A DNA stretch of 11,147 nt from a virus (IMGVR_UViG_2585427748_000016:1-11147); one strand, 5' to 3'; positions 1-11,147 are shown, counted from the first letter of the stretch. Program-made: numbers and translations. Notes: generated by a model not told the origin, from the letters alone.

Positions 1-1284
1 TTACTTCTTCGCCTCTGCAACCACTTTACTACCCACGCCGCGGTTATTGTATTCCCACATGCGGTTGTAGTTAGTGTCATTCAGATTGCGCTGTATTTCG
101 TCGTTATCATCTACGCTGCCGGTATTACCCGCAAACGGACGATTAGAGATCACCGCATCGGCCCACGGTTTAGCCGTGTTAAAACCTTCGTTGATGGCGC
201 TATCACGGATCACCACCTGACCGTTGGTATTGGCATCAACATCCAGCGAGCGGCCCAGTTGCGCCACACCATCACCGAAAGCATTGAAACGGCTGTTTAC
301 GGCGAGGAAACCGTAGTAAATGTTGGACAGCGTAGCCGGTGCAAACACATACGCTTCTTGCTGAGTACGTGAGTTCACCACGCGGAATTCGGTGTTATCG
401 AACACCACTGCGCCGCGACCAAAAACGATATCCACATCCCCTTCAATGTAGCTGTTGGTCACCAGCGTACGCGGCTGACGATTTGTTTCCAGACGGTTCT
501 GCACACCGCTGTTGGTGACAAAGAAGGTGTTCTGACGACCGAGAATGTTAACGTTGTTAATCTGTACCTGGTCACCATCAGTACGCAGTGCCACCGCCGG
601 ATGGTTACCTGCATCTACGCTATCGCCCAGCGTGTTTTCGATGGTCAGATTTTGCAGTTGCAGGCCATTGTTTTGTGACCAGAAGACCGCAGAGCAGAGA
701 ACACCGATACTGTCGCTGCGTTTGCTCTGGCAGCTATCGTACATATACCACGCTGGTTTACCTGGCATATATTTGCCGCGCGGGTTGACGTCGTGACGCC
801 AGTCGGCAGGGCTCATGCCACCATCAAGGGAAAGCCCAATCTTCACATCAATCGGTTTTTCACCTGTACCGTACAGAGTAATTCCACCCGGAGCGGCAGG
901 GACATATACCGTTCCCTGATACTCACCAGGCATCACGGCAATATACTGGCGCTTGTTGGTACGCTTGATAATTGCCGCATCTACCGCCGCCTGAATCGTG
1001 GTATGCGTTACACCTTGAGTGCCCGCCGGGCCGACAACAAAGTCAGGTTGCGCAGGCAGGGTAATCGGGGAAGGATTCCACGCTGCAGCACCTGGTGTCA
1101 GGGATGCAAAATAGTGTTGAGCATCGAAATTCTGCGCTTCTTTTGCCGACAGAATCGGGCGAGAAGAGGTACCAGGCGCGGTTTGATCAGAAGGACGTTG
1201 ATCGGGCGGGGTTGAGCTACAGGCGGTCAGCGTCACGCCAAAAGCCAATGCCAGCGCCAGACGGGAAACTGAAAATGTGTTCAC
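1..1284 (-). CDS. ybhC: YbhC-like outer-membrane lipoprotein (pectinesterase-like acyl-CoA thioesterase family)
   Basis: Complete 427-aa ORF with the stop codon at window position 1-3. N-terminal signal peptide with lipobox LTAC. Length and position immediately beside the lambda att core match E. coli ybhC as recalled. Confidence 0.85.
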   Translation of the reverse strand: MNTFSVSRLALALAFGVTLTACSSTPPDQRPSDQTAPGTSSRPILSAKEAQNFDAQHYFASLTPGAAAWNPSPITLPAQPDFVVGPAGTQGVTHTTIQAAVDAAIIKRTNKRQYIAVMPGEYQGTVYVPAAPGGITLYGTGEKPIDVKIGLSLDGGMSPADWRHDVNPRGKYMPGKPAWYMYDSCQSKRSDSIGVLCSAVFWSQNNGLQLQNLTIENTLGDSVDAGNHPAVALRTDGDQVQINNVNILGRQNTFFVTNSGVQNRLETNRQPRTLVTNSYIEGDVDIVFGRGAVVFDNTEFRVVNSRTQQEAYVFAPATLSNIYYGFLAVNSRFNAFGDGVAQLGRSLDVDANTNGQVVIRDSAINEGFNTAKPWADAVISNRPFAGNTGSVDDNDEIQRNLNDTNYNRMWEYNNRGVGSKVVAEAKK

Positions 1285-1315
1285 AGGTTGCTCCGGGCTA
1301 TGAAATAGAAAAATG

Positions 1316-1418
1316 AATCCGTTGAAGCCTGCTTTTTTATACTAAGTTGGCATTATAAAAAAGCATTGCTTATCAATTTGTTGCAACGAACAGGTCACTA
1401 TCAGTCAAAATAAAATCA
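1316..1418. other. attL: bacterial B arm, 15-bp core GCTTTTTTATACTAA (1331-1345), phage P' arm with Int arm-type sites
   Basis: Exact lambda att core at 1331-1345. The downstream sequence GTTGGCATTATAAAAAAGCATTGCTTATCAATTTGTTGCAACGAACAGGTCACTATCAGTCAAAATAAAATCATTATTTG matches the lambda P' arm as recalled, including the direct repeats AGGTCACTAT and CAGTCAAAAT. Upstream GAAGCCT matches the attB flank. Confidence 0.9.
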
Positions 1419-2489
1419 TTATTTGATTTCAATTTTGTCCCACTCCCTGCCTCTGTCATCACGATACTGTGATGCCATGGTGTCCGACTTATGCCCGAGA
1501 AGATGTTGAGCAAACTTATCGCTTATCTGCTTCTCATAGAGTCTTGCAGACAAACTGCGCAACTCGTGAAAGGTAGGCGGATCCCCTTCGAAGGAAAGAC
1601 CTGATGCTTTTCGTGCGCGCATAAAATACCTTGATACTGTGCCGGATGAAAGCGGTTCACGACGAGTAGATGCAATTATGGTTTCTCCGCCAAGAATCTT
1701 TTTGCATTTATCAAGTGTTTCCTTCATTGATATCCCGAGAGCATCAACATGCAATGTTGTTGGGATGGCAATTTTTACGCCTGTTTTGCTTTGCTCGACA
1801 TAAAGATATCCATCTACGATATCAGACCACTTCATTTCGCATAAATCACCAACTCGCTGCCCGGTAACAACAGCCAGTTCCATTGCAAGTCTAAGCCAAC
1901 ATGGTGATGATTCTGCTGCTTGATAAATTTTCAGGTATTCGTCAGCCGTAAGTCTTGATCTCCTTACCTCTGATTTTGCAGCGCGAGTGGCTGCGACCGG
2001 GTTTGTTGTTATATGGCCTTCAGCTATAGCCTCTCGGAATGCATCGCTCAGTGTTGATCTGATTAACTTGGCTGATGCCGCCTTGCCCTCGTCTATGTAT
2101 CCATTGAGCATTGCCGCAATTTCTTTTGTGGTGATGTCTTCAAGTGGAGCATCAGGCAGACCCCTCCTTATTGCTTTAATTTTGCTCATGTAATTTATGA
2201 GTGTCTTCTGCTTGATTCCTCTGCTGGCCAGGATTTTTTCGTAGCGATCAAGCCATGAATGTAACGTAACGGAATTATCACTGTTGATTCTCGCTGTCAG
2301 AGGCTTGTGTTTGTGTCCTGAAAATAACTCAATGTTGGCCTGTATAGCTTCAGTGATTGCGATTCGCCTGTCTCGGCCTAATCCAAACTCTTTACCCGTC
2401 CTTGGGTCCCTGTAGCAGTAATATCCATTGTTTCTTATATAAAGGTTAGGGGGTAAATCCCGGCGCTCATGACTTCGCCTTCTTCCCAT
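1419..2489 (-). CDS. int: Lambda-type integrase (tyrosine recombinase)
   Basis: 356-aa ORF next to attL, the same length as lambda Int. C-terminal catalytic motifs are present: HELRSLSARLY (His/Arg) and LLGHKSDTMASQY (His and the nucleophilic Tyr). Confidence 0.95.
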   Translation of the reverse strand: MGRRRSHERRDLPPNLYIRNNGYYCYRDPRTGKEFGLGRDRRIAITEAIQANIELFSGHKHKPLTARINSDNSVTLHSWLDRYEKILASRGIKQKTLINYMSKIKAIRRGLPDAPLEDITTKEIAAMLNGYIDEGKAASAKLIRSTLSDAFREAIAEGHITTNPVAATRAAKSEVRRSRLTADEYLKIYQAAESSPCWLRLAMELAVVTGQRVGDLCEMKWSDIVDGYLYVEQSKTGVKIAIPTTLHVDALGISMKETLDKCKKILGGETIIASTRREPLSSGTVSRYFMRARKASGLSFEGDPPTFHELRSLSARLYEKQISDKFAQHLLGHKSDTMASQYRDDRGREWDKIEIK

Positions 2490-2685
2490 TTCTGATCCTC
2501 TTCAAAAGGCTACCTGTTACTGGTCGATTTAAGTCAACCTTTACCGCTGATTCGTGGAACAGATACTCTCTTCCATCCTTAACCGGAGGAGGGAATATCC
2601 TGCACTCGCGTACCCATCGACGAACTGTTTCAAGGCTTCTTGGGCGTCGCTGGCGTGCGTTCCACTCCTGAAGTGTCAAGTACAT
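2467..2685 (-). CDS. xis: Excisionase
   Basis: 72-aa ORF whose 3' end overlaps the int start by 23 nt. Starts MYLTLQEWNARQRRPRSLETVRRW, a lambda Xis-like winged-helix N-terminus. Same length as lambda Xis. Confidence 0.9.
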   Translation of the reverse strand: MYLTLQEWNARQRRPRSLETVRRWVRECRIFPPPVKDGREYLFHESAVKVDLNRPVTGSLLKRIRNGKKAKS

Positions 2686-2724
2686 CGCAAAGTCTCCGCA
2701 ATTACACGCAAGAAAAAACCGCCA

Positions 2725-2892
2725 TCAGGCGGCTTGGTGTTCTTTCAGTTCTTCAATTCGAATATTGGTTACGTCTGCATGTGCTATCTGCGCCCACAGC
2801 ATCCAGTGGTCATAGCAGTCGCTGATGTTCTCGGCTTCGATAACTCTGTTGAATGGTTCTCCATTCCATTCACCTGTGACTCGGAAGTGCAT
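2725..2892 (-). CDS. Small exo-xis region protein (55 aa, lambda orf55-like by position and length)
   Basis: ATG at 2892 to TGA at 2725-2727 on the minus strand, translating MHFRVTGEWNGEPFNRVIEAENISDCYDHWMLWAQIAHADVTNIRIEELKEHQAA. It lies directly upstream of xis in the same orientation. It is absent from the supplied ORF track only because it is shorter than 60 aa. Confidence 0.55.
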   Translation of the reverse strand: MHFRVTGEWNGEPFNRVIEAENISDCYDHWMLWAQIAHADVTNIRIEELKEHQAA

Positions 2893-2905
2893 TTATCATC
2901 TCCAT

Positions 2906-2928
2906 AAAAAAAACTCGCCGTAGCGAGT
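2906..2928 (-). terminator. Putative intrinsic terminator downstream of the DUF1311-like gene
   Basis: Hairpin ACTCGC-CGTA-GCGAGT at 2913-2928 followed on the minus strand by a U-tract (plus-strand A-run 2906-2912). Confidence 0.5.
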
Positions 2929-3128
2929 TCAGATAAAAGAAATCCCCGCGAGTGCGAGGATAGTTATTCATTGTCGATATTTACATTTATTTCGAATATC
3001 TTTACTGGGTAATCGCCAAAGTCATATATTTTTTATTCTGTTTTATAAGCACTACCAAGTACTGCTTATTACAAATAAGAAAAGGCTGAAAAAAATATTT
3101 AAGACCACAACTGTGGCCCTAAATTTAC

Positions 3129-3827
3129 TTACGGCACTGCGTTAATCAGATTACAAATACCTCTTTTGGCAGGGTCTGAATTCAACTTCTGAAAATTGGC
3201 GTTCAACATAGCCGTGTGTAAGTGATTCTCAACCTCAAAGAATAGGTCGATTTTGCCCTCTTTGGCTGCCTGTTTCTTCCAAATATTCACTTGGTCATCA
3301 GCAATACGACTAGCGCAAGTGAACAAGAACGAACTGCCTCTAGGAATGGATGTCGTGCTGTAATACTCACCATCTACTTCTACATATTTAGCTCGGAATG
3401 ACTCTAAGGTTAGCTTATTGCCGTTCTTGACCGACTTAGCTTCTGCCTTACTTGTATCTTCCTGCTCTTTAGAATGTTTCTGCGCCGACGTGGGTATGTC
3501 ATTGGCCGCTGTTACGCTGACTGAACTCCCCAAACCTTTGAGGCCATTAATTTGGATAAGATAAGCCAGCTCCAGAGCCTTATTATCAGTGAGTTTTCCA
3601 CGCATATTTACCCACTGACGTTGAACCATTTTTAGGGTGTCTGCGTTCTCTGGGTTTCCTTTGAGGGCACTAGAATAGGCAGAGCTAAGCTGTTCGTCTA
3701 ATTTTGACAGACGTTCGTTATCGCAGATTTTATGTTCGATTGCTGTCGAAGCCTTTTGGCAGTCAAAGCTGGCTGCAAATGCACCCGGCGATGCCACTAA
3801 CAATGATGCCAGTAGGATATTTTTCAT
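3129..3827 (-). CDS. Secreted protein with N-terminal DUF1311/LprI-like domain and uncharacterised C-terminal domain (putative moron)
   Basis: 232-aa ORF from the ATG at 3827, preceded by a GGAG Shine-Dalgarno. Sec-type signal peptide MKNILLASLLVASPGAFA. The mature N-terminus FDCQKASTAIEHKICDNERLSKLDEQLSSAYSS...VQRQWVNMRG resembles the DUF1311 (LprI N-terminal) motif. The track ORF 3129-3854 starts at an upstream in-frame Met with no good RBS. Confidence 0.6.
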   Translation of the reverse strand: MKNILLASLLVASPGAFAASFDCQKASTAIEHKICDNERLSKLDEQLSSAYSSALKGNPENADTLKMVQRQWVNMRGKLTDNKALELAYLIQINGLKGLGSSVSVTAANDIPTSAQKHSKEQEDTSKAEAKSVKNGNKLTLESFRAKYVEVDGEYYSTTSIPRGSSFLFTCASRIADDQVNIWKKQAAKEGKIDLFFEVENHLHTAMLNANFQKLNSDPAKRGICNLINAVP

Positions 3828-3855
3828 ATTCACTCCATAAATACAAAAGCGCATT

Positions 3856-3890
3856 ACTATAGCACTTAACCGATCGCTTATCTCGCCCGT
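3856..3890 (-). promoter_or_regulatory. Candidate sigma70 promoter with extended -10 (TGcTATAGT) for the DUF1311-like gene
   Basis: Minus-strand sequence GTGCTATAGTAATG lies about 30 nt upstream of the ATG, in the 103-bp gap between the ea22 stop and the gene start. The -35 element is weak. Confidence 0.3.
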
Positions 3891-3957
3891 TCGTCATTCT
3901 TATCTAACCAGAACATGCGACTGCCACAGCACATGTCGAGGATTGCTGCATGTCCAG

Positions 3958-4506
3958 TCACTGGTTGCCTCCTTTGCGAAGCTGGGCGGCTAACTCATCA
4001 CATATGTGCGTCAAAGAGCAAAGTTTGATTGATGGATGTTCGCGCATCATCTCCACCCCCTGCGCCCGTACTTCAGCCAGGAAAGCATCGGTGGCTGGCA
4101 TATTTCCTGTTGCCTTCATGGCCTCCAAAATAACCAGAACACCATCTCTCCCAATCTCCTCGCAGATAACCTCGGTGCTGTCGCCAACAACATCGCAGAA
4201 TTCCTGAACTGCTTTACGAGCCAGCTCATTCTCCGCCGCCAGCGCCGAAAACTTCTCGTGTGCCAACTTAACAGCTGCATCAGCCTGCTTAATTGACTCA
4301 GTCGCTTTCTGGTGGTCTTCGGCCAGCCCTGCTAAATCAGCCTCCAGTTCGGCTAGGCGTTCATTTAATGCATCTCGTTCATCCAGTAGAGCCAGCACAA
4401 CCTGAGGTGTGACTTTCATACGAAATGCCAGCAATTTTTGAGGTGTTGCTACTGTTTCAATTGCTACTGCCGCCTCACGCAGTGCCTGAGAGTTAATTTC
4501 GCTCAC
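3958..4506 (-). CDS. ea22: Ea22-like exo-xis region protein (coiled-coil)
   Basis: 182-aa ORF with a GTG start overlapping the upstream stop (GTGA). The N-terminus MSEINSQALREAA and the LALLDERD segment match lambda Ea22 as recalled; the C-terminal two thirds appear divergent (mosaic). Confidence 0.65.
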   Translation of the reverse strand: MSEINSQALREAAVAIETVATPQKLLAFRMKVTPQVVLALLDERDALNERLAELEADLAGLAEDHQKATESIKQADAAVKLAHEKFSALAAENELARKAVQEFCDVVGDSTEVICEEIGRDGVLVILEAMKATGNMPATDAFLAEVRAQGVEMMREHPSIKLCSLTHICDELAAQLRKGGNQ

Positions 4507-4724
4507 TTCGAACCTCTCTGTTTACTGATAAGTTCCAGATCCTCCTGGCAACTTGCACAAGTCCGACAACCCTGAACGGCCAAGCGTCTTCGTTCATCTA
4601 TCGGATCGCCACACTCACAACAATGAGTGGCAGATATAGCCTGGTGGTTCAGGCGGCGCATTTTTATTGCTGTGTTGCGCTGTAATTCTTCAATTTCTGA
4701 TGCTGAATCAATGATGTCTGCCAT
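4503..4724 (-). CDS. TraR/DksA-family C4 zinc-finger protein (lambda orf73-like)
   Basis: 73-aa ORF with CCECG-(17)-CRTCASC, a CxxC...CxxC zinc finger typical of phage TraR-like proteins. Its position between orf63 and ea22 matches the exo-xis region. Confidence 0.7.
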   Translation of the reverse strand: MADIIDSASEIEELQRNTAIKMRRLNHQAISATHCCECGDPIDERRRLAVQGCRTCASCQEDLELISKQRGSK

Positions 4725-4773
4725 CTTTCATTAATCCCTGAATTGTTGGTTAATACGCTTGAGGGTGAATGCG

Positions 4774-4800
4774 AATAATAAAAAAGGAGCCTGTAGCTCC
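4774..4800 (-). terminator. Weak candidate intrinsic terminator within the exo-xis operon
   Basis: 5-bp GC-rich stem GGAGC/GCTCC (4786-4800) followed on the minus strand by UUUUUUAUUAUU. Confidence 0.25.
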
Positions 4801-4822
4801 CTGATGATTTTGCTTTTCATGT

Positions 4823-5038
4823 TCACCGTTCCTTAAAGACGCCGTTCAACAAGCCGATCGCCAGCCTTAAATGAGTCGGTGTGAATCCCATCAGCGTTAC
4901 CGTTTCGCGGTGCTTCTTTAGTACGCTACGGCAAATGTCATCGACGTTTTTATCCGGAAACTGCTGTCTGGCTTTTTTGATTTCAGAATTAGCCTGACGG
5001 GCAATGCTGCGAAGGGCGTTTTCTTGCTGAGGTGTCAT
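4823..5038 (-). CDS. Hypothetical exo-xis region protein (71 aa from the Met at 5038; the track ORF extends to 5104)
   Basis: ORF in the same orientation, tightly packed between orf63 and the orf73-like gene. The start codon is ambiguous (ATG at 5104 or 5038). No recognisable motif. Confidence 0.45.
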   Translation of the reverse strand: MTPQQENALRSIARQANSEIKKARQQFPDKNVDDICRSVLKKHRETVTLMGFTPTHLRLAIGLLNGVFKER

Positions 5039-5114
5039 TGAACAAGCCCCATGTCGGCAAGCATAAGCACACAGAATATGAAGCCCGCTGCCAGAAAAAT
5101 GCATTCAGTGGTTG

Positions 5115-5306
5115 TCATACCTGGTCTCTCTCATCTGCTTCTGCTTTCGCCACCATCATTTCCAGCTTTTGTGAAAGGGATGCGGCTAACGTATGAAATT
5201 CTTCGTCTGTTTCTACTGGTATTGGCACAAACCTGACTCCAATTTGAGCGAGGCTATGTGCCATCTCGATACTCGTTCTTAACTCAACGGGAGATGCTTT
5301 GTGCAT
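5115..5306 (-). CDS. Exo-xis region protein, lambda orf63-like
   Basis: 63-aa [40 protein letters not shown]..., matching lambda orf63 in length and position. Confidence 0.6.
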
Positions 5307-5422
5307 ACAGCTCCCCGTTTATTATTTATCTCCTCAGCCAGCCGCTGTGCTTTCAGGGGATTTCTGATAACAGAAAGGCCGGGAAGCCCAATATTTGATA
5401 CCAGACCTCTCCGCGCCGCCAT
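5279..5422 (-). CDS. Small ORF (47 aa) overlapping the orf63 start by 28 nt; possible truncated or chimeric orf60a-like gene at the deletion junction
   Basis: ATG at 5422 with an AGGAGA Shine-Dalgarno 9 nt upstream. A 28-nt overlap with the orf63 start is the same arrangement as recalled for lambda orf60a/orf63. The N-terminal part may derive from junction sequence. Confidence 0.3.
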
Positions 5423-5454
5423 GATTGTCTTTCTCCTGATGCAGGAGGCCAATA

Positions 5455-5649
5455 ATGCTTAGCCCATCTCAATCCCTTCAATACCTGAAAGGAAGCATAG
5501 AGCGGGCTTCAATGTGCACAGAGTGGATTCTATCTAGGTTTAGCGCATACAGAAGATTGCCGGTAAAGGGCATGCCAAGCAAGTCGATGCTGCATATGCA
5601 AAAGAATGCGCGCTGGAAGGTATGGCGAAAACACAGGTTATGTGGCTGA
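5455..5649 (+). CDS. Hypothetical 64-aa ORF at the junction, with a strong Shine-Dalgarno
   Basis: AGGAGG followed by 7 nt and ATG at 5455. No recognisable motif. Overlaps the ybcO-like remnant in another frame, so it may be fortuitous. Confidence 0.25.
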
Positions 5650-5672
5650 AAGAGGGGATTATTAAGGCGTGA
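5544..5672 (+). pseudogene. 3' remnant of a ybcO-like (DUF1364 nuclease family) nin-region gene, lacking a start
   Basis: The frame ending at TGA 5670-5672 translates ...[34 protein letters not shown], resembling the C-terminus of DLP12 YbcO as recalled. An in-frame stop at 5541-5543 leaves no N-terminal region. Its stop overlaps the rusA GTG start. Confidence 0.4.
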
Positions 5673-6031
5673 ATACCTACAGCATCACATTACCCTGGCC
5701 TCCGAGCAATAATCGCTATTACCGCCATAATCGCGGGCGCACGCACGTCAGCGCAGAGGGGCAGGCATACCGCGATAACGTCGCCAGAATCATTAAAAAC
5801 GCAATGCTGGATATCGGCCTGGCTATCCCTGTGAAAATCCGCATTGAGTGCCACATGCCGGATCGCCGTCGCCGTGACCTGGATAATCTGCAAAAAGCCG
5901 CTTTTGACGCACTCACTAAAGCAGGTTTCTGGCTGGATGATGCTCAGGTCGTTGATTACCGCGTTGTGAAGATGCCTGTTACCAAAGGTGGGAGGCTGGA
6001 ACTGACCATCACCGAAATGGGGAATGAATGA
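5669..6031 (+). CDS. rusA: Holliday junction resolvase RusA
   Basis: 120-aa ORF with a GTG start, [37 protein letters not shown]..., matching the RusA family (DLP12-type) in length and sequence as recalled. Confidence 0.85.
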
Positions 6032-6168
6032 TGTTTGAGTTTTATGTGGCAGAACGTCTTCGCCACCGCTGGATGCGCCTGCGCTTATATCGTTTTCCTG
6101 GTTCTGTTTTGACCGATTACCGAATACTGAAGAATTACGCCAAAACCCAGACAGGAGCAGGAGTATGA
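6028..6168 (+). CDS. ylcG: Small nin-region protein (46 aa), YlcG-like
   Basis: ATGATG start overlapping the rusA stop (ATGA), translating [46 protein letters not shown]. Its position between rusA and the Q-like gene is as in DLP12. Confidence 0.5.
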
Positions 6169-6253
6169 AGTCAGAGATAACAATCAACTAATACTGTTTT
6201 GTTGATTTTTGCTTGTAATTGGCGTTCTGGTCTGATTTTTGTGGAGTAAGTTG

Positions 6254-6637
6254 ATGCGTGATATTCAGATGGTTCTTGAGCGTTGGGGAGCGTGGGCGGC
6301 TAATAATCATGAAGATGTGACCTGGTCGTCCATTGCCGCCGGTTTTAAGGGATTAATTACTTCAAAAGTAAAATCTCGCCCGCAATGTTGTGACGATGAC
6401 GCGATGATTATTTGCGGGTGCATGGCCCGTCTGAAAAAGAACAACAGCGATTTGCACGATTTATTAGTAGATTATTATGTAGTCGGTATGACATTCATGT
6501 CACTGGCAGGTAAGCATTGCTGCTCTGATGGTTATATCGGGAAAAGGTTACAGAAGGCTGAGGGCATAATTGAAGGGATGTTAATGGCATTAGATATCCG
6601 GTTAGAGATGGATATCGTTGTTAATAACTCTAATTAA
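6254..6637 (+). CDS. quuD: Late-gene antiterminator, Q-like (QuuD type)
   Basis: 127 aa from [18 protein letters not shown]..., with GGAG 7 nt upstream. Cysteine-rich ([18 protein letters not shown]) small Q-family protein located between rusA/ylcG and the lysis genes. The track ORF begins at an upstream in-frame Met at 6239. Confidence 0.8.
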
Positions 6638-6670
6638 TATGCCAGTTGTTTACTAAAAATTATTAAAAAT

Positions 6671-6688
6671 GGGGCGTTGCAACGCCCC
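6671..6688 (-). terminator. Perfect palindrome GGGGCGTTGCAACGCCCC, probable terminator for the convergent porin gene
   Basis: 7-bp GC-rich stem with a 4-nt loop, followed on the minus strand by AUUUUUAAUAAUUUUU. Confidence 0.45.
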
Positions 6689-6776
6689 CAAAAATAAAGG
6701 GTAATATATAACAGAAGGTTTATATAGTTAGAAGCAAGGTTGTGCTCCTAAAGGAAGTGGCTTGAGGGAGCCACTT

Positions 6777-6816
6777 ATATGTTGGGGAGGCAAAGCCTCC
6801 CGCAACATATCTTTTT
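6777..6816 (+). terminator. Long hairpin plus T-run between the Q-like gene and the porin 3' end (bidirectional terminator region)
   Basis: ATATGTTGGGGAGGC-AAA-GCCTCCC(G)CAACATAT: a stem of about 15 bp with one bulge, followed by CTTTTT at 6811-6816. It lies 10 nt beyond the porin stop, so it may serve both strands. Confidence 0.5.
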
Positions 6817-6826
6817 CGTAATCAGA

Positions 6827-7924
6827 TTAGAACTGGTAAACCAGACCTACAGCAACGATGTCATCAGTGCTTACACTGAGTGCTTTAGTGAAGTCATTTT
6901 TGTCAAGCAGGTTGATTTTGTAATCAACGAAAGTAGACATATTTTTGTTGAAGTAATAGGTTGCACCTACATCAACATATTTGACTAAGTCCTGATCGCC
7001 CCATACTCCAAGATCCTTACCTTTAGATTGCAGGTAAGCAACGGACGGACGCAGACCGAAATCGAACTGATATTGTGCAACAGCTTCGAAGTTTTGGGCT
7101 TTATTAGCAACGAAGTGATCAGCAAATACAGTCATATTCTGGGTTTCAGAATAGGTAGTGGCCAGGTAAATGTTGTTAGCGTCATATTTCAGACCTGCGG
7201 CCCAAACTTCTGCATTTTTACCGGAAGCAAATACTTCAGGAAGAACTTTCCCTGCATTAACTTGAGTGTCGGTACGATCAGATTTCGCATAAGTTGCACC
7301 GATACCGAATCCTTCGTATTCATAGGTAGCAGAGAAACCGAAGCCATCACCGTTACCTTCAGTGTAGTTATCGAAATCGCTACGATCGTTTTTGCCTTGG
7401 TACTGAGCAGCAAAGTTCAGACCATCAACCAGACCAAAGAAGTCGTTGTTACGATAGGTTGCAACACCAGTTGCACGTTGAGTCATGAACACGTCGGTTT
7501 GAGTCCAAGTGTCACCACCGAATTCTGGCAGGACGTCAGTCCACGCGCCGATGTCGTATGCTACACCGTAGTTACGGCCGTAATCGATGGAGCCGTAGTC
7601 ACCGAATTTCAGGCCTGCAAATGCAAGACGGGTTTTGTCTTTGGAGGAGCCTTGAGATTCAGCGCGGTTGCCTTTGAATTCATATTCCCACTGACCGAAA
7701 CCAGTCAGTTGATCGTTGATTTGGGTTTCACCTTTGAAGCCAAGACGGGCATAAGTAGTATCACCATCATCTGCATCATTAGAGGAGAAGTAGTGCTTAG
7801 CATTAACTTTCCCGTACAGATCCAGCTTGTTACTGTCTTTATTATAAATTTCAGCTGCCTGAGCAGACATCGCCATCAGTACTGATGCAGCTACAGCAGA
7901 AATTGCCACTGTTAATTTTTTCAT
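6827..7924 (-). CDS. nmpC: Outer-membrane general porin, OmpC/OmpF/PhoE/NmpC family (prophage moron)
   Basis: 365 aa from [23 protein letters not shown], a signal peptide with AQA cleavage site. Mature protein starts [16 protein letters not shown], with a porin-typical C-terminal VGLVYQF ending in Phe. Uninterrupted in this window. The track ORF starts at an upstream Met at 7984. Confidence 0.85.
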
Positions 7925-8351
7925 CGTGAGCCCTTTTTTTGAACTATTATTAAAAAATGATGTCACTGCGCGATAAATATTCATCTAATCAATGTGATTA
8001 TTTCAAGATGTAAGTTTTGGTTTCTCGTTTGATTTGTGAAGTAGATCTCTATTTTTATCTGAACTTTTTTCTATCGAATCCTATTCATGGCTCTTGGCTG
8101 AATAAAAATAAATCTGTTAGCCAATTTATATTAACGGCTGTTATTTATAAGTGCTCTATAATTTGAAGGTTCAATTTAAACCGGCTAAAAATAACACTGG
8201 AAATTATTTGTTGGTTATTTGTTGAGATTTTCTTATGTATTTGTAGTGGTGTTTTCAATACTCGGTAGCATTCTCGCAAATATCATTTAGTGGTTTACGT
8301 ACGTAAAAAATTGGTTATGCTGTTAAGAGTGGTTACTTCGTCACACAGCTT

Positions 8352-8380
8352 AAACCCGCCGTCGAGCGGGTTTTTCCATT
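8352..8380 (+). terminator. Intrinsic terminator-like hairpin upstream of the holin (tR'-like; the late promoter is probably just upstream)
   Basis: AAACCCGC-CGTCGA-GCGGGTTT stem-loop followed by TTCCATTTTTT, about 120 nt upstream of the holin start. Confidence 0.45.
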
Positions 8381-8496
8381 TTTTGAGTCTCGATATTAGC
8401 TGATAACCCAATACCTGAGTTATTCACTGACTCCGAGTCTGTTACGTTTCGTAGTATTCCCTCAATTTACACCCGCTTTGTCTGCGAGGTGGGGTT

Positions 8497-8712
8497 ATGA
8501 AATCCATGGATAAGTTAACAACGGGTGTCGCCTATGGCACCTCAGCAGGTAGTGCCGGGTACTGGTTTTTACAGCTGCTAGATAAAGTCACGCCCTCACA
8601 GTGGGCGGCAATTGGAGTGCTGGGTAGCCTGGTATTTGGCCTGCTGACGTACCTGACAAACCTTTATTTCAAGATTAAAGAAGATAAGCGCAAGGCTGCG
8701 AGAGGTGGATAA
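8497..8712 (+). CDS. S: Class II holin (phage 21 S-type pinholin) with dual-start motif
   Basis: 71 aa, [26 protein letters not shown]..., with Met1 and Met4 (holin/antiholin dual start), two TM segments and a charged C-terminus. GAGGTGG RBS. Confidence 0.85.
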
Positions 8713-9209
8713 TGCCTCCATCATTACGAAAAGCTGTTGCTGCTGCTATTGGTGGCGGGGCTATTGCTATAGCATCTGTATTAATCACTGGCCCAAGTGG
8801 TAACGATGGTCTGGAAGGTGTGAGACATAATCCTTACAAAGACATAGTTGGTGTATGGACTGTATGTCACGGGCATACAGGAAAAGACATCATTCCCGGT
8901 AAAACGTATACCGAAGCAGAGTGCAAAGCCCTCCTGAATAAAGACCTTGCCACTGTCGCCAGACAAATTAACCCGTACATCAAAGTCGATATACCGGAAA
9001 CAACGCGCGGCGCTCTTTACTCGTTCGTCTACAACGTGGGTGCTGGCAATTTCAGAACATCGACGCTTCTTCGCAAAATAAACCAGGGTGATATTAAAGG
9101 CGCATGTGATCAGCTACGTCGCTGGACATATGCTGGCGGTAAGCAATGGAAAGGTCTCATGACTCGTCGTGAGATTGAGCGTGAAATCTGTTTGTGGGGT
9201 CAGCAATGA
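8712..9209 (+). CDS. R: SAR endolysin (phage 21 R-type lysozyme)
   Basis: 165 aa. The start overlaps the holin stop (TAATG). Gly/Ala-rich N-terminal signal-anchor-release segment [20 protein letters not shown], followed by a T4-lysozyme-like catalytic region. Confidence 0.85.
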
Positions 9210-9667
9210 ACAGAGTAACCGCGATTATCTCCGCTCTGGTTATCTGCATCATCGTCGGCCTGTCATGGGCTGTTAATCATTACCGTGATAACGCCATTAC
9301 CTACAAAGCCCAGCGCGACAAAAATGCCAGAGAACTGAAGCTGGCGAACGCGGCAATTACTGACATGCAGATGCGTCAGCGTGATGTTGCTGCGCTCGAT
9401 GCAAAATACACGAAGGAGTTAGCTGATGCGAAAGCTGAAAATGATGCTCTGCGTGATGATGTTGCCGCTGGTCGTCGTCGGTTGCACATCAAAGCAGTCT
9501 GTCAGTCAGTGCGTGAAGCCACCACCGCCTCCGGCGTGGATAATGCAGCCTCCCCCCGACTGGCAGACACCGCTGAACGGGATTATTTCACCCTCAGAGA
9601 GAGGCTGATTACTATGCAAAAACAACTGGAAGGAACCCAGAAGTATATTAATGAGCAGTGCAGATAG
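9206..9667 (+). CDS. Rz: Rz i-spanin
   Basis: 153 aa from [23 protein letters not shown] (N-terminal TM), then coiled-coil. ATGA overlap with the endolysin stop. Near-identical to lambda Rz as recalled. Confidence 0.85.
9426..9608 (+). CDS. Rz1: Rz1 o-spanin lipoprotein, embedded in the +1 frame of Rz
   Basis: 60 aa, [20 protein letters not shown] with lipobox VVGC, then a proline-rich mature part [15 protein letters not shown]. Fully contained within Rz. Confidence 0.85.
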
Positions 9668-9698
9668 AGCTGCCCATATCTATGGGCAACTCATGCAA

Positions 9699-9992
9699 TT
9701 ATTGTGAGCAATACACACGCGCTTCCAGCGGAGTATAAATGCCTAAAGTAATAAAACCGAGAAATCCATTTACGAATGTTTGCTGGGTTTCTGTTTTAAC
9801 AACATTTTCTGCGCCGCCACAAATTTTGGCTGCATCAACAGTTTTCTCCTGTCCAATTCCCGAAACGAAGAAATGATGGGTGATGGTTTCCTTTGGTGTT
9901 ACTGCTGTCGGTTTGTTTCCAACAGTAAACGTCTGTTGAGCACATCCTGTAATAAGCATTGCCAGAGCGGCAGAAAACAACATTTTTTTCAT
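9699..9992 (-). CDS. bor: Bor lipoprotein (serum-resistance, Iss-like)
   Basis: 97 aa from MKKMLFSAALAMLITGC, with lipobox LITGC. The track ORF 9699-10040 starts at an upstream in-frame Met. Confidence 0.85.
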   Translation of the reverse strand: MKKMLFSAALAMLITGCAQQTFTVGNKPTAVTPKETITHHFFVSGIGQEKTVDAAKICGGAENVVKTETQQTFVNGFLGFITLGIYTPLEARVYCSQ

Positions 9993-10108
9993 CTTATTAT
10001 CCTGCATTGTTAAAAACGGCAGAATCCTATGTGACAACAATTAAACGATAGTTAAATGGATTGATGAAAATTAAAACTATATAGGTGGATGCTCAGCCTA
10101 TTGGAGGA

Positions 10109-10117
10109 GGGGGGGGG
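10109..10117. repeat. Homopolymeric G9 tract in the intergenic region upstream of bor
   Basis: GGAGGAGGGGGGGGGCACTC; nine consecutive G at 10109-10117. Confidence 0.9.
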
Positions 10118-10354
10118 CACTCAGAATCCTGTGGAATGAAATAAACCGCTCTTTCTGTCCATTACCCTTTTAGCTGCGCTGTATCGTCGCCGTATTCCCG
10201 CATTAACCATGACCGTAGCCCGACGGGGAATTCCTTCTGCGTGAGTGTGCGGGAATAATCAAAAACGATGCACACCGGGTTTTACTGTGCTGACAGACGC
10301 AGGGTTACCCTCATAGTCGCTTTTCCGGTGCGATGGTGGAAGAAACCGGGATGT

Positions 10355-10549
10355 TTATTCATCATCACTCTGGATTGATGTATATGCTCTCTTTTCTGAC
10401 GTTAGTCTCCGACGGCAGGCTTCAATGACCCAGGCTGAGAAATTCCCGGACCCTTTTTGCTCAAGAGCGATGTTAATTTGTTCAATCATTTGGTTAGGAA
10501 AGCGGATGTTGCGGGTTGTTGTTCTGCGGGTTCTGTTCTTCGTTGACAT
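10355..10549 (-). CDS. Small basic protein, YlcI-like (DUF3950 family), adjacent to cos
   Basis: 64-aa ORF MSTKNRTRRTTTRNIRFPNQMIEQINIALEQKGSGNFSAWVIEACRRRL..., with an Arg-rich N-terminus and a ribbon-helix-helix-like segment. In DLP12 the position just before the nu1 homolog is occupied by ylcI, as recalled. Confidence 0.5.
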   Translation of the reverse strand: MSTKNRTRRTTTRNIRFPNQMIEQINIALEQKGSGNFSAWVIEACRRRLTSEKRAYTSIQSDDE

Positions 10550-10699
10550 GAGGTTGTCCCGTATTCAGTGTCGCTGATTTGTATTGTCTGAAGTTGTTTT
10601 TACGTTAAGTTGATGCAGATCAATTAATATGATACCTGCGTCATAATTGATTATTTGACGTGGTTTGATGGCCTCCACGCACGTTGTGATATGTAGATG

Positions 10700-10937
10700 A
10701 TAATCATTATCGCTTTACGGGTCCTTTCCGGTGATCCGACAGGTTACGGGGCGGCGACCTCGCGGGTTTTCGCTATTTATGAAAATTTTCCGGTTTAAGG
10801 CATTTCCGTTCTTCTTCGTCGTAACTTAATGTTTTTATTTAAAATACCCCCTGAAAAGAAAGGAAACGACAGGTGCTGAAAACGAGCTTTTGGGCCTCTG
10901 TCGTTTCCTTTCTCTGTTTTTGGCCGTGGAATGAACA
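10700..10937 (+). other. cos region: cosQ side, cosN with 12-nt cohesive end GGGCGGCGACCT (10749-10760), cosB
   Basis: The sequence ...GGTGATCCGACAGGTTACG|GGGCGGCGACCTCGCGGGTTTTCGCTATTTATGAAAATTTTCCGG... matches the lambda right-end/left-end junction as recalled. Confidence 0.9.
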
Positions 10938-11147
10938 ATGGAAGTCAACAAAAAGCAGCTGGCTGACATTTTCGGTGCGAGTATCCGTACCATTCAGAAC
11001 TGGCAGGAACAGGGAATGCCCGTTCTGCGAGGCGGTGGCAAGGGTAATGAGGTGCTTTATGATTCTGCCGCCGTCATAAAATGGTATGCCGAAAGGGATG
11101 CTGAAATTGAGAACGAAAAGCTGCGCCGGGAAGTTGAAGAACTGCGG
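10938..11147 (+). CDS. nu1: Terminase small subunit Nu1 (5' part; truncated by the window end)
   Basis: ATG at 10938, translating MEVNKKQLADIFGASIRTIQNWQEQGMPVLRGGGKGNEVLYDSAAVIKWYAERDAEIENEKLRREVEELR, matching the lambda Nu1 N-terminus. It has no stop within the window, so it is absent from the ORF track. Confidence 0.9.
   Translation, partial: MEVNKKQLADIFGASIRTIQNWQEQGMPVLRGGGKGNEVLYDSAAVIKWYAERDAEIENEKLRREVEELR

Follow-up and report, generated by a model that had tools for sequence, protein, structure and literature searches.

The prophage and its attachment site

The viral sequence IMGVR_UViG_2585427748_000016:1-11147 (called the window below, meaning the whole stretch of 11,147 bp that was analysed) begins in the host gene ybhC and continues into a lambdoid prophage. 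Moving away from ybhC, the prophage carries attL, int, xis and the exo-xis region as far as orf63 and a truncated orf60a. This gene is joined to the end of ninX, which is followed by a remnant of ybcO, by rusA, ylcG, a Q antiterminator gene, a porin gene and the lysis genes, and then by cos and the start of nu1 (Table 1). The original prediction, made from the DNA sequence alone, had described this direct passage from the exo-xis region to the distal nin, lysis and packaging genes, and each element that it named was found at or near its predicted position.

Judged by its sequence, the window contains the left part (9.8 kb) of a lambdoid prophage, inserted beside E. coli ybhC at the classical attachment site of lambda. 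The lambda core GCTTTTTTATACTAA is exact, with the bacterial arm to its left and 75 bp of the lambda P' arm to its right. The whole of 1331-1420 is identical to lambda 27724-27813 (90/90), and homology to lambda and to mEp332 begins at window position 1330/1331. With bacterial arm, core and P' arm next to ybhC, this is the hybrid attL of a lambda-type prophage at attB-lambda (ybhC/ybhB).

The integrase and the excisionase are both of lambda specificity. Int differs from lambda Int at residues 164, 245, 248 and 264. The catalytic residues of lambda Int are R212, K235, H308, R311, H333 and Y342, and none of the four substitutions falls on one of them. The expectation that int, xis, attL, the lysis cassette and cos would be intact is borne out: attL and cosN are exact, Int and Xis are nearly identical to those of lambda, and the lysis open reading frames (ORFs) are full length.

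Table 1. Features of the window, with the evidence for each. Fractions are identical residues unless stated otherwise.
Feature	Position	Strand	Evidence
ybhC, host gene	1-1284	-	427-aa ORF; annotated ybhC in all matching E. coli genomes; gal-side flank of lambda attachment site
attL	1331-1420	+	15-bp lambda core at 1331-1345, then phage P' arm
int, lambda-type tyrosine integrase, full length, 356 aa	1419-2489	-	352/356 with lambda Int
xis, excisionase, full length, 72 aa	2467-2685	-	71/72 with lambda Xis; Pfam Exc, E = 3.9e-41
exo-xis region	2725-5306	-	Pfam matches; annotation of the 99.5%-identical E5 prophage
orf55	2725-2892	-	part of exo-xis region
LprI-family gene in place of lambda ea8.5	3129-3827	-	part of exo-xis region
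ea22-like gene	3958-4506	-	part of exo-xis region
orf73, TraR/DksA zinc finger	4503-4724	-	Pfam
hypothetical ORF	4823-5038	-	part of exo-xis region
orf63 (DUF1382)	5115-5306	-	part of exo-xis region
truncated orf60a (DUF1317)	5279-5385	-	Pfam profile positions 26-59 of 60 left (34 residues' worth, C-terminal)
ninX 3' remnant, 77 bp, last 25 codons	5386-5462	+	tblastn: mEp332 NinX residues 89-113, 100% identical
ybcO (DUF1364) C-terminal remnant, 90 bp	5583-5672	+	translation; same remnant annotated in other prophages
rusA	5669-6031	+	119/120 with K-12 DLP12 RusA
ylcG	6028-6168	+	full-length ORF
Q antiterminator, QuuD type	6254-6637	+	127/127 with K-12 DLP12 QuuD
OmpC/NmpC-family porin, intact moron between Q and lysis genes	6827-7924	-	365/365 with mEp332 porin; Pfam Porin_1 in identical contig
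S/essD	8497-8712	+	full length; 70/71 with DLP12
R/rrrD, lysozyme	8712-9209	+	full length; 158/165 with DLP12
Rz	9206-9667	+	full length; 147/153 with DLP12, 151/153 with lambda
Rz1, embedded in Rz	9426-9608	+	full length; 59/60 with DLP12
bor/iss-type lipoprotein gene	9699-9992	-	88/97 with lambda Bor; Pfam Lambda_Bor
ylcI (DUF3950)	10355-10549	-	62/64 with DLP12 YlcI; Pfam match
cos region	10700-10937	+	cosN 12-mer GGGCGGCGACCT exact at 10749-10760
nu1 5' part, small terminase subunit, cut by window end	10938-11147	+	70/70 codons with lambda Nu1

The deletion junction

The two halves of the prophage meet at 5385/5386, where orf60a and ninX are joined directly, AGAAAGGCCGGGAA being followed by GCCCAATATTTG with no intervening sequence. 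On the left side, homology to lambda, mEp332, E5 and five other prophages stops at 5385, within orf60a, and this holds for Eco_24-2013 too. From there the left parent continues ATACCCAG, and the right parent reads GCAAAAGGCGTAA up to the breakpoint and GCCC after it. The exact overlap of the two parents is AA only (2 bp), together with an imperfect AAAGGC..AA. No insertion sequence (IS) element, IS end or repeat was found at the junction. Because only AA is shared and no IS is present, the junction is best described as an illegitimate, microhomology-poor deletion that was neither IS-mediated nor homologous; an IS-mediated origin was rejected on the same ground, unlike the junctions of strains E5 and F95, which contain ISEc52 and IS5 respectively. 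A chimeric ORF of 47 aa takes in the truncated orf60a and extends across the junction to 5422. Between orf63 and rusA we counted 362 bp (5306 to 5669), which agrees with the predicted value of about 360 bp.

Collinear alignment to intact relatives gives the size of the missing segment. The flanks of the junction lie at positions 3501 and 13917 of the viable phage mEp332 (PV340541), so that 10,415 bp (3502-13916) are absent from the window. For the intact Eco_24-2013 prophage the corresponding positions are 23681 and 32758, with 9,076 bp absent. The loss relative to the nearest intact relatives is therefore 9.1-10.4 kb, less than the 12-15 kb first proposed. In the relatives the absent segment holds exo, bet, gam, kil, cIII, ea10, (ral, sieB), N, pL/nutL, the immunity region (cI, cro, cII, pR), O, P with ori, ren, ninB, ninE and most of ninX, and in mEp332 a methyltransferase gene as well. 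The right edge of the deletion had been placed in ybcO and has to be moved to ninX. The ybcO remnant is older than the deletion, since the identical 90 bp are found in viable mEp332, in prophages whose early region is complete and in prophages with other deletion alleles.

The window was searched by tblastn with 24 lambda proteins (22 of the early region, with Orf60a and Orf63) and 17 early proteins of mEp332. Three matches only were obtained, to the C-terminal part of Orf60a, to Orf63 and to the last 25 residues of NinX. No homologue of exo, bet, gam, kil, cIII, N, cI, cro, cII, O, P, ren or ninB was found on either strand of the window with the 22 lambda and 16 mEp332 early proteins.

The repressor, N, O, P and ori, on which lytic growth and its control depend, have all been lost, as is expected of a cryptic (defective) lambdoid prophage. 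From these alignments the window probably represents (with a probability of about 0.9) a deletion derivative of an mEp332-like ancestor, and so a new allele, at attB-lambda, of the well-known DLP12 kind of cryptic lambdoid prophage. In a single event of illegitimate recombination, orf60a was linked at codon ~26 to the final 25 codons of ninX, with the loss of about 9-10.4 kb. Base-level alignment to lambda, DLP12, mEp332 and the intact prophages of the same site thus agrees with the original prediction that the element lacks its recombination, N, immunity and replication modules through deletion.

Other assemblies and sequence beyond the window

The junction is present in other public data. 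The junction-spanning ORF of 47 aa, which has an ATG start, is listed in 37 blocks of a public assembly index, and the look-up gave no record of its 57-aa form with a TTG start. Contigs that match the window without gaps along 6.4-11.1 kb, at 0-5 mismatches, come from the NCBI assembly GCA_030002175.1, from a metagenome assembly at ENA and from several assemblies derived from SRA (Logan); in GCA_030002175.1 all 11,147 bp are aligned, with 3 mismatches.

These assemblies bear on the question of whether two prophages, for example one at lambda attB and one resembling DLP12, were joined by the assembler through shared sequence. The right half of the window is 96-98% identical to K-12 DLP12, and lambdoid repeats often break assemblies, so such an artefact is conceivable in principle. 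The junction is, however, the same base for base in the independent NCBI, ENA and Logan assemblies, which come from different samples. There is no repeat for an assembler to use, only the shared AA, and the right side starts in ninX, a gene absent from DLP12, and is 99.5% identical to the lambda-attB prophage of F3_13_1_3, to which it is closer than to DLP12. Because independent assemblies have an identical junction we exclude misassembly, to which we would assign next to no probability.

The near-identical contig L013, which has 3 mismatches to the window, extends 2.4 kb past the window end. Here the reading frame of nu1 passes, at around codon 90 and about 60 bp past window position 11147, into the C-terminal part of the side-tail-fibre gene stf. 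The fusion is an ORF of 406 aa (1408-2628 of the contig, where it is on the minus strand) with Phage_Nu1 and Collar domains, and it is followed by tfa. The extension consists of nu1'-stf'-tfa and ends, short of attR, where the E5 prophage has IS1 downstream of tfa. Comparison of the contig sequence with E5 implies a second deletion of ~22 kb, which would have removed A through J and lom, and with them all head and tail genes.

The extension also bears on the idea that the early genes were moved, by inversion or transposition, to another part of the same prophage and not lost. Inversion is known at this locus, as F3_13_1_3 has an inverted P'-ren-ninB-mtase' segment between orf63' and the nin genes. 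Against such a rearrangement, neither strand of the window has an early-gene homologue, no inverted early genes lie in the 2.4 kb of L013 beyond the window, where nu1'-stf'-tfa runs up to the IS1 boundary, and in the sister strain E5 only ~2.7 kb of non-early genes separate IS1 from ybhB. We consider it very unlikely that the core survives in this way.

The mismatches between the window and L013 cluster at 11063, 11075 and 11080, within 18 bp of nu1, where the window agrees with BS74R-D and F95. Such a cluster suggests either that a tract was exchanged by recombination or that the genome from which the window came continues differently on the right. Because the three mismatches cluster at 11063-11080, the nu1-stf fusion cannot be asserted for that genome.

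Several points weigh against the view that the window is an ordinary deletion derivative of an mEp332-like prophage, or restrict its reach. A 465-bp query across the junction gave no continuous match among the 5,426 complete RefSeq E. coli genomes. The sole hit to span 80% or more of it, in 52F4, fell into two pieces and represents a different allele, and an exact 45-nt junction pattern had 0 hits in the GTDB species representatives; the window allele belongs to a lineage represented by draft data only. The window ends in nu1, with attR and the rest of the prophage beyond its end, and to the right its own genome may differ from L013, the sole longer contig. That at least eight other E. coli prophages at attB-lambda carry different lesions of the same core, with a separate lesion in every most-similar locus examined, speaks for this view, but the comparison set was ranked by coverage of the window and is thus biased to short, deleted loci. 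The functional consequences given below are drawn from lambda biology, and the promoter scan used is crude, giving 11 sites compared with 17.1 in shuffled sequence, so that it neither proves nor excludes fortuitous promoters.

Comparison with related prophages

Cryptic lambdoid prophages have been known since DLP12, the attB prophage of B strains is a described example, and one more matters little alone. This one is a cleanly resolved example, with a junction exact to the base, a known type of intact parent and a sister element that has an independent deletion.

DLP12 of K-12 (at argU, 12 min) has the same layout as the window: int-xis, a central deletion, the distal nin genes, rusA, ylcG, quuD and a porin gene, followed by essD-rrrD-rzpD/rzoD, borD, ylcI, cos and, in DLP12, nohD. 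The DNA is 96-98% identical over 5583-10046 and 10338-11145 and has no match left of 5583. The central deletion of DLP12 is exoD'/peaD' (24033 and 31205 in Eco_24-2013 coordinates), and its endpoints differ from those of the window. DLP12 also keeps P'/ren, emrE, ybcK-ybcN and a full ybcO, and has ybcV and ybcW, which are absent from the window; its porin gene nmpC is split by IS5, whereas that of the window is intact. The element at ybhC has a lambda-type attL, int and xis, and DLP12 lies at argU with its own integrase gene, intD. That the window is DLP12 itself was rejected on account of the ybhC site, the lambda int and the lack of any DLP12 DNA match left of 5583.

The viable phage mEp332 is collinear with the window and 98.4-99.3% identical over 1330-2973, 4491-5385 and 5374-11147; for the two sides of the junction the range is 98.4-99.0%. 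Shared features are int, xis, orf63, ninX, the ybcO remnant, rusA, Q, the porin gene, the lysis genes, cos and nu1. The ea region differs, the LprI and ea22 genes of the window (2974-4490) being replaced in mEp332.

Lambda itself is identical to the window in the attP core and P' arm (100%), shares orf63 and is nearly identical in Rz1 (59/60), and Rz, Rz1, bor, cos and nu1 of the window are all lambda-like. The Q, S, R and distal nin genes are of the DLP12/82 type and not of the lambda type (11/207, 16/107 and 36/165 identical residues with lambda Q, S and R). Lambda lacks the porin moron, and its segment from 31276 to ~43880 has no counterpart in the window.

A defective prophage at the same site is also found in E. 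coli B (REL606/BL21), where lambda-B, published as a 12.1-kb attB prophage of REL606 (PMC4395058), has a lambda-type int and xis beside ybhC and has lost the whole central region. After its ea-type genes the REL606 prophage has an Rz1-like lysC remnant and a different set of terminase and structural genes, without the rusA-Q-porin-S-R-Rz module. Lambda-B is a different element from that of the window and has an independent history.

The closest left half belongs to the prophage at ybhC of strain E5 (NZ_CP104521), which is 99.46% identical over window positions 2-5385, including the LprI/ea22 substitution; for its right half the value is 99.06%. Retained in E5 are exo, bet, gam, kil and cIII, as well as all head and tail genes, and ea10' through ybcO' has been lost beside ISEc52. 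An origin of either allele from the other was rejected, as E5 lacks window positions 5386-5631 and the window lacks exo to cIII of E5. Because each keeps DNA that is absent from the other, the two deletions are independent.

In E5, ISEc52 (10481-11720 of the E5 locus, corresponding to window position 5631/5632) lies inside the ybcO remnant, and rusA starts 37 bp downstream of it. In DLP12 the otherwise silent resolvase is activated by IS insertions in front of its gene (rus-1 and rus-2). By analogy, E5 may express RusA.

Other deletions at the same site

Of 5,426 complete E. coli genomes, 1,920 (~35%) have a lambda-type attL with int beside ybhC, which makes the site a good natural experiment on how and where prophages are disabled. 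The other alleles, written as left end/right end, are ea10'/ISEc52/ybcO' in E5, orf63'/inverted P'-ren-ninB-mtase'/ in F3_13_1_3, orf60a'/mtase' in ML35, orf60a'/ren' in BS74R-D, exo'/ninX' in 52F4, orf73/IS5/ren' in F95, bet'/ren' in EC416 and orf60a'/P' in 1409. The prophages of KTa005 and Eco_24-2013, which were chosen on attL similarity alone, have complete early regions. The core of control and replication genes is the part deleted in each of at least nine junction alleles at attB-lambda, as it is in lambda-B and DLP12. In most of these alleles int, xis, Q, the lysis cassette and the porin and bor morons are intact ORFs; the exceptions are ML35, in which an IS5-family element disrupts the porin gene, and lambda-B, in which the late region is different.

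Some breakpoints recur. ML35 (5429), BS74R-D (5443) and 1409 (6459) have an identical left breakpoint in orf60a, directly after GATCGCGCCTA and before A (...GCGCCTA/A, position 23729 of Eco_24-2013), and this end is joined to three different partners, mtase', ren' and P' respectively. The xisD/exoD' mosaic boundary of K-12 DLP12 (~3073) is at the same base, reached from the other side. In F95, IS5 is inserted in ren at a CTAA target (31585 of Eco_24-2013), and the junction of BS74R-D, which has no IS, has its right breakpoint at the same point (31585-31588), which hints at an IS5-linked history or at shared use of CTAA. The right ends of the window deletion (5386) and the 52F4 deletion (5915, equal to window position 5399) are 13 bp apart, and their left ends are 519 bp apart.

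It is possible, although we think it doubtful, that lambda-attB prophages lose the pL-to-P core convergently and at preferred sites and not through random decay. If true, illegitimate recombination would have hotspots here, or IS5 copies would once have been present and then lost, and selection would in addition favour grounded prophages in which useful modules are retained. A simpler account, which may be partly sufficient for the shared left end, is a single ancestral junction GCGCCTAA followed by slippage deletions onto downstream (GCGC)TAA/TAA microhomologies. The reuse of breakpoints among independent alleles is the one thread here that might repay further work.

Predicted consequences for the element

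Without the cI repressor the element would have no immunity and no SOS-inducible switch, and would not be inducible. Loss of O, P and ori would abolish replication. Normal transcription of xis and int would be lost with pL, N and nutL, and pI could not be activated without cII. In the absence of pR and N, rusA and Q would lack their programmed transcription, and late transcription of S-R-Rz, which depends on Q, is expected to be off. From the loss of induction, of replication and of xis and int transcription it would follow that the element is locked in the chromosome and inherited vertically. The original prediction that the element can neither control nor replicate itself is thus supported. 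That it retains excision, lysis and packaging is right for the genes and sites and not for what would drive them, pL, pR, N and cII being deleted. For annotation, the lesson is that a prophage with intact int, xis, cos and lysis genes need not be inducible.

Some parts of the element could still act, namely genes that have their own signals (the porin gene and the bor/iss and LprI-type morons) and the S-R-Rz genes at a low level of expression. The porin, bor/iss and LprI-family genes are on the opposite strand, with terminator-like hairpins nearby, and their products, a porin, a Bor/Iss-type lipoprotein and an LprI-family protein, are the parts most likely to affect the host phenotype. For the lysis operon of DLP12, conservation and transcription have been reported, with a Q-type antiterminator, RpoE and Hha as its regulators and with effects on vesiculation and biofilm (PMC7918800). 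By analogy with this near-identical module, the same behaviour is plausible for the lysis operon of the window.

The att, cos, Q and lysis DNA would also remain open to recombination with superinfecting lambdoid phages, or to complementation by them. Remnants of this kind are a source of DNA for superinfecting lambdoid phages (PMC3945230, PMC9119081), and phage 434 records with the NmpC porin region match the window at 97.5%.

Complementation could be taken further, to a helper-dependent element that a lambda-type phage excises and packages in trans and that is maintained, like a satellite, as a phage parasite. The int and xis genes, the attL arm sites and cos are essentially identical to those of lambda, and the allele is present in many samples. 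Its spread over samples is, however, explained equally well by clonal inheritance. Neither a replication module nor an AlpA-type regulator nor packaging-redirection genes, the hallmarks of the cos-type phage-inducible chromosomal islands (cos-PICIs) of E. coli, are present; no ORF or Pfam match among the window ORFs corresponds to the primase/replicase with ori and the AlpA-type regulator by which these islands are recognised. Both flanks are 97-99% identical in nucleotide sequence to ordinary lambdoid phages, which have a 90-100% identical counterpart of every gene. Packaging by lambda needs concatemers with two cos sites, which an excised, non-replicating circle cannot supply. We therefore give little credence to a satellite-like role and prefer the reading of the element as a grounded deletion derivative.

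The exo-xis region

From window position 4462 onwards the region left of the junction is 97.3% identical to lambda 30352-31275. Around the LprI-family gene, positions 2974-4490 form a substitution relative to lambda and mEp332 with a low GC content (~39-44%), which is also found in strains E5 and F95. The LprI-family product (232 aa) has what looks like a signal sequence at its N-terminus, and its residues 23-78 weakly match the Pfam LprI (lysozyme-inhibitor) family. A strong hairpin terminator lies beside the gene at 3124-3097, and the gene looks like a moron.

The late region

From rusA to ylcI the late genes (rusA, ylcG, Q, the porin gene, S, R, Rz, Rz1, bor and ylcI) are uninterrupted, with 89-100% protein identity to DLP12, mEp332 or lambda. 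Window positions 10338-10748 and 10749-11147 correspond to lambda 48092-48502 and 1-400 respectively, at ~97.6% identity. In the cos neighbourhood (10700-11147) there are 10 differences from lambda in 448 aligned positions, none of which is in cosN. Scans of the window for tRNA genes and with Rfam gave no matches. Between bor and ylcI (10047-10337) the window lacks the ybcV and ybcW genes of DLP12 and 52F4, and lambda and DLP12 match only 111 bp of this interval, at 82-83%.

The best sigma-70-like promoter match of the prophage, and the sole one with 10 of 12 positions, is GTGACA-18-CATAAT at 6503-6474 on the minus strand, antisense within Q. It is positioned like paQ of lambda, and a leftward transcript from it would cross rusA and the junction towards orf63, xis and int. 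The interval between the porin gene and S (7925-8490, ~570 bp) is very AT-rich, with 33-35% GC. It includes, on the plus strand at 8352-8373, a terminator-like hairpin that could be the late terminator tR'.

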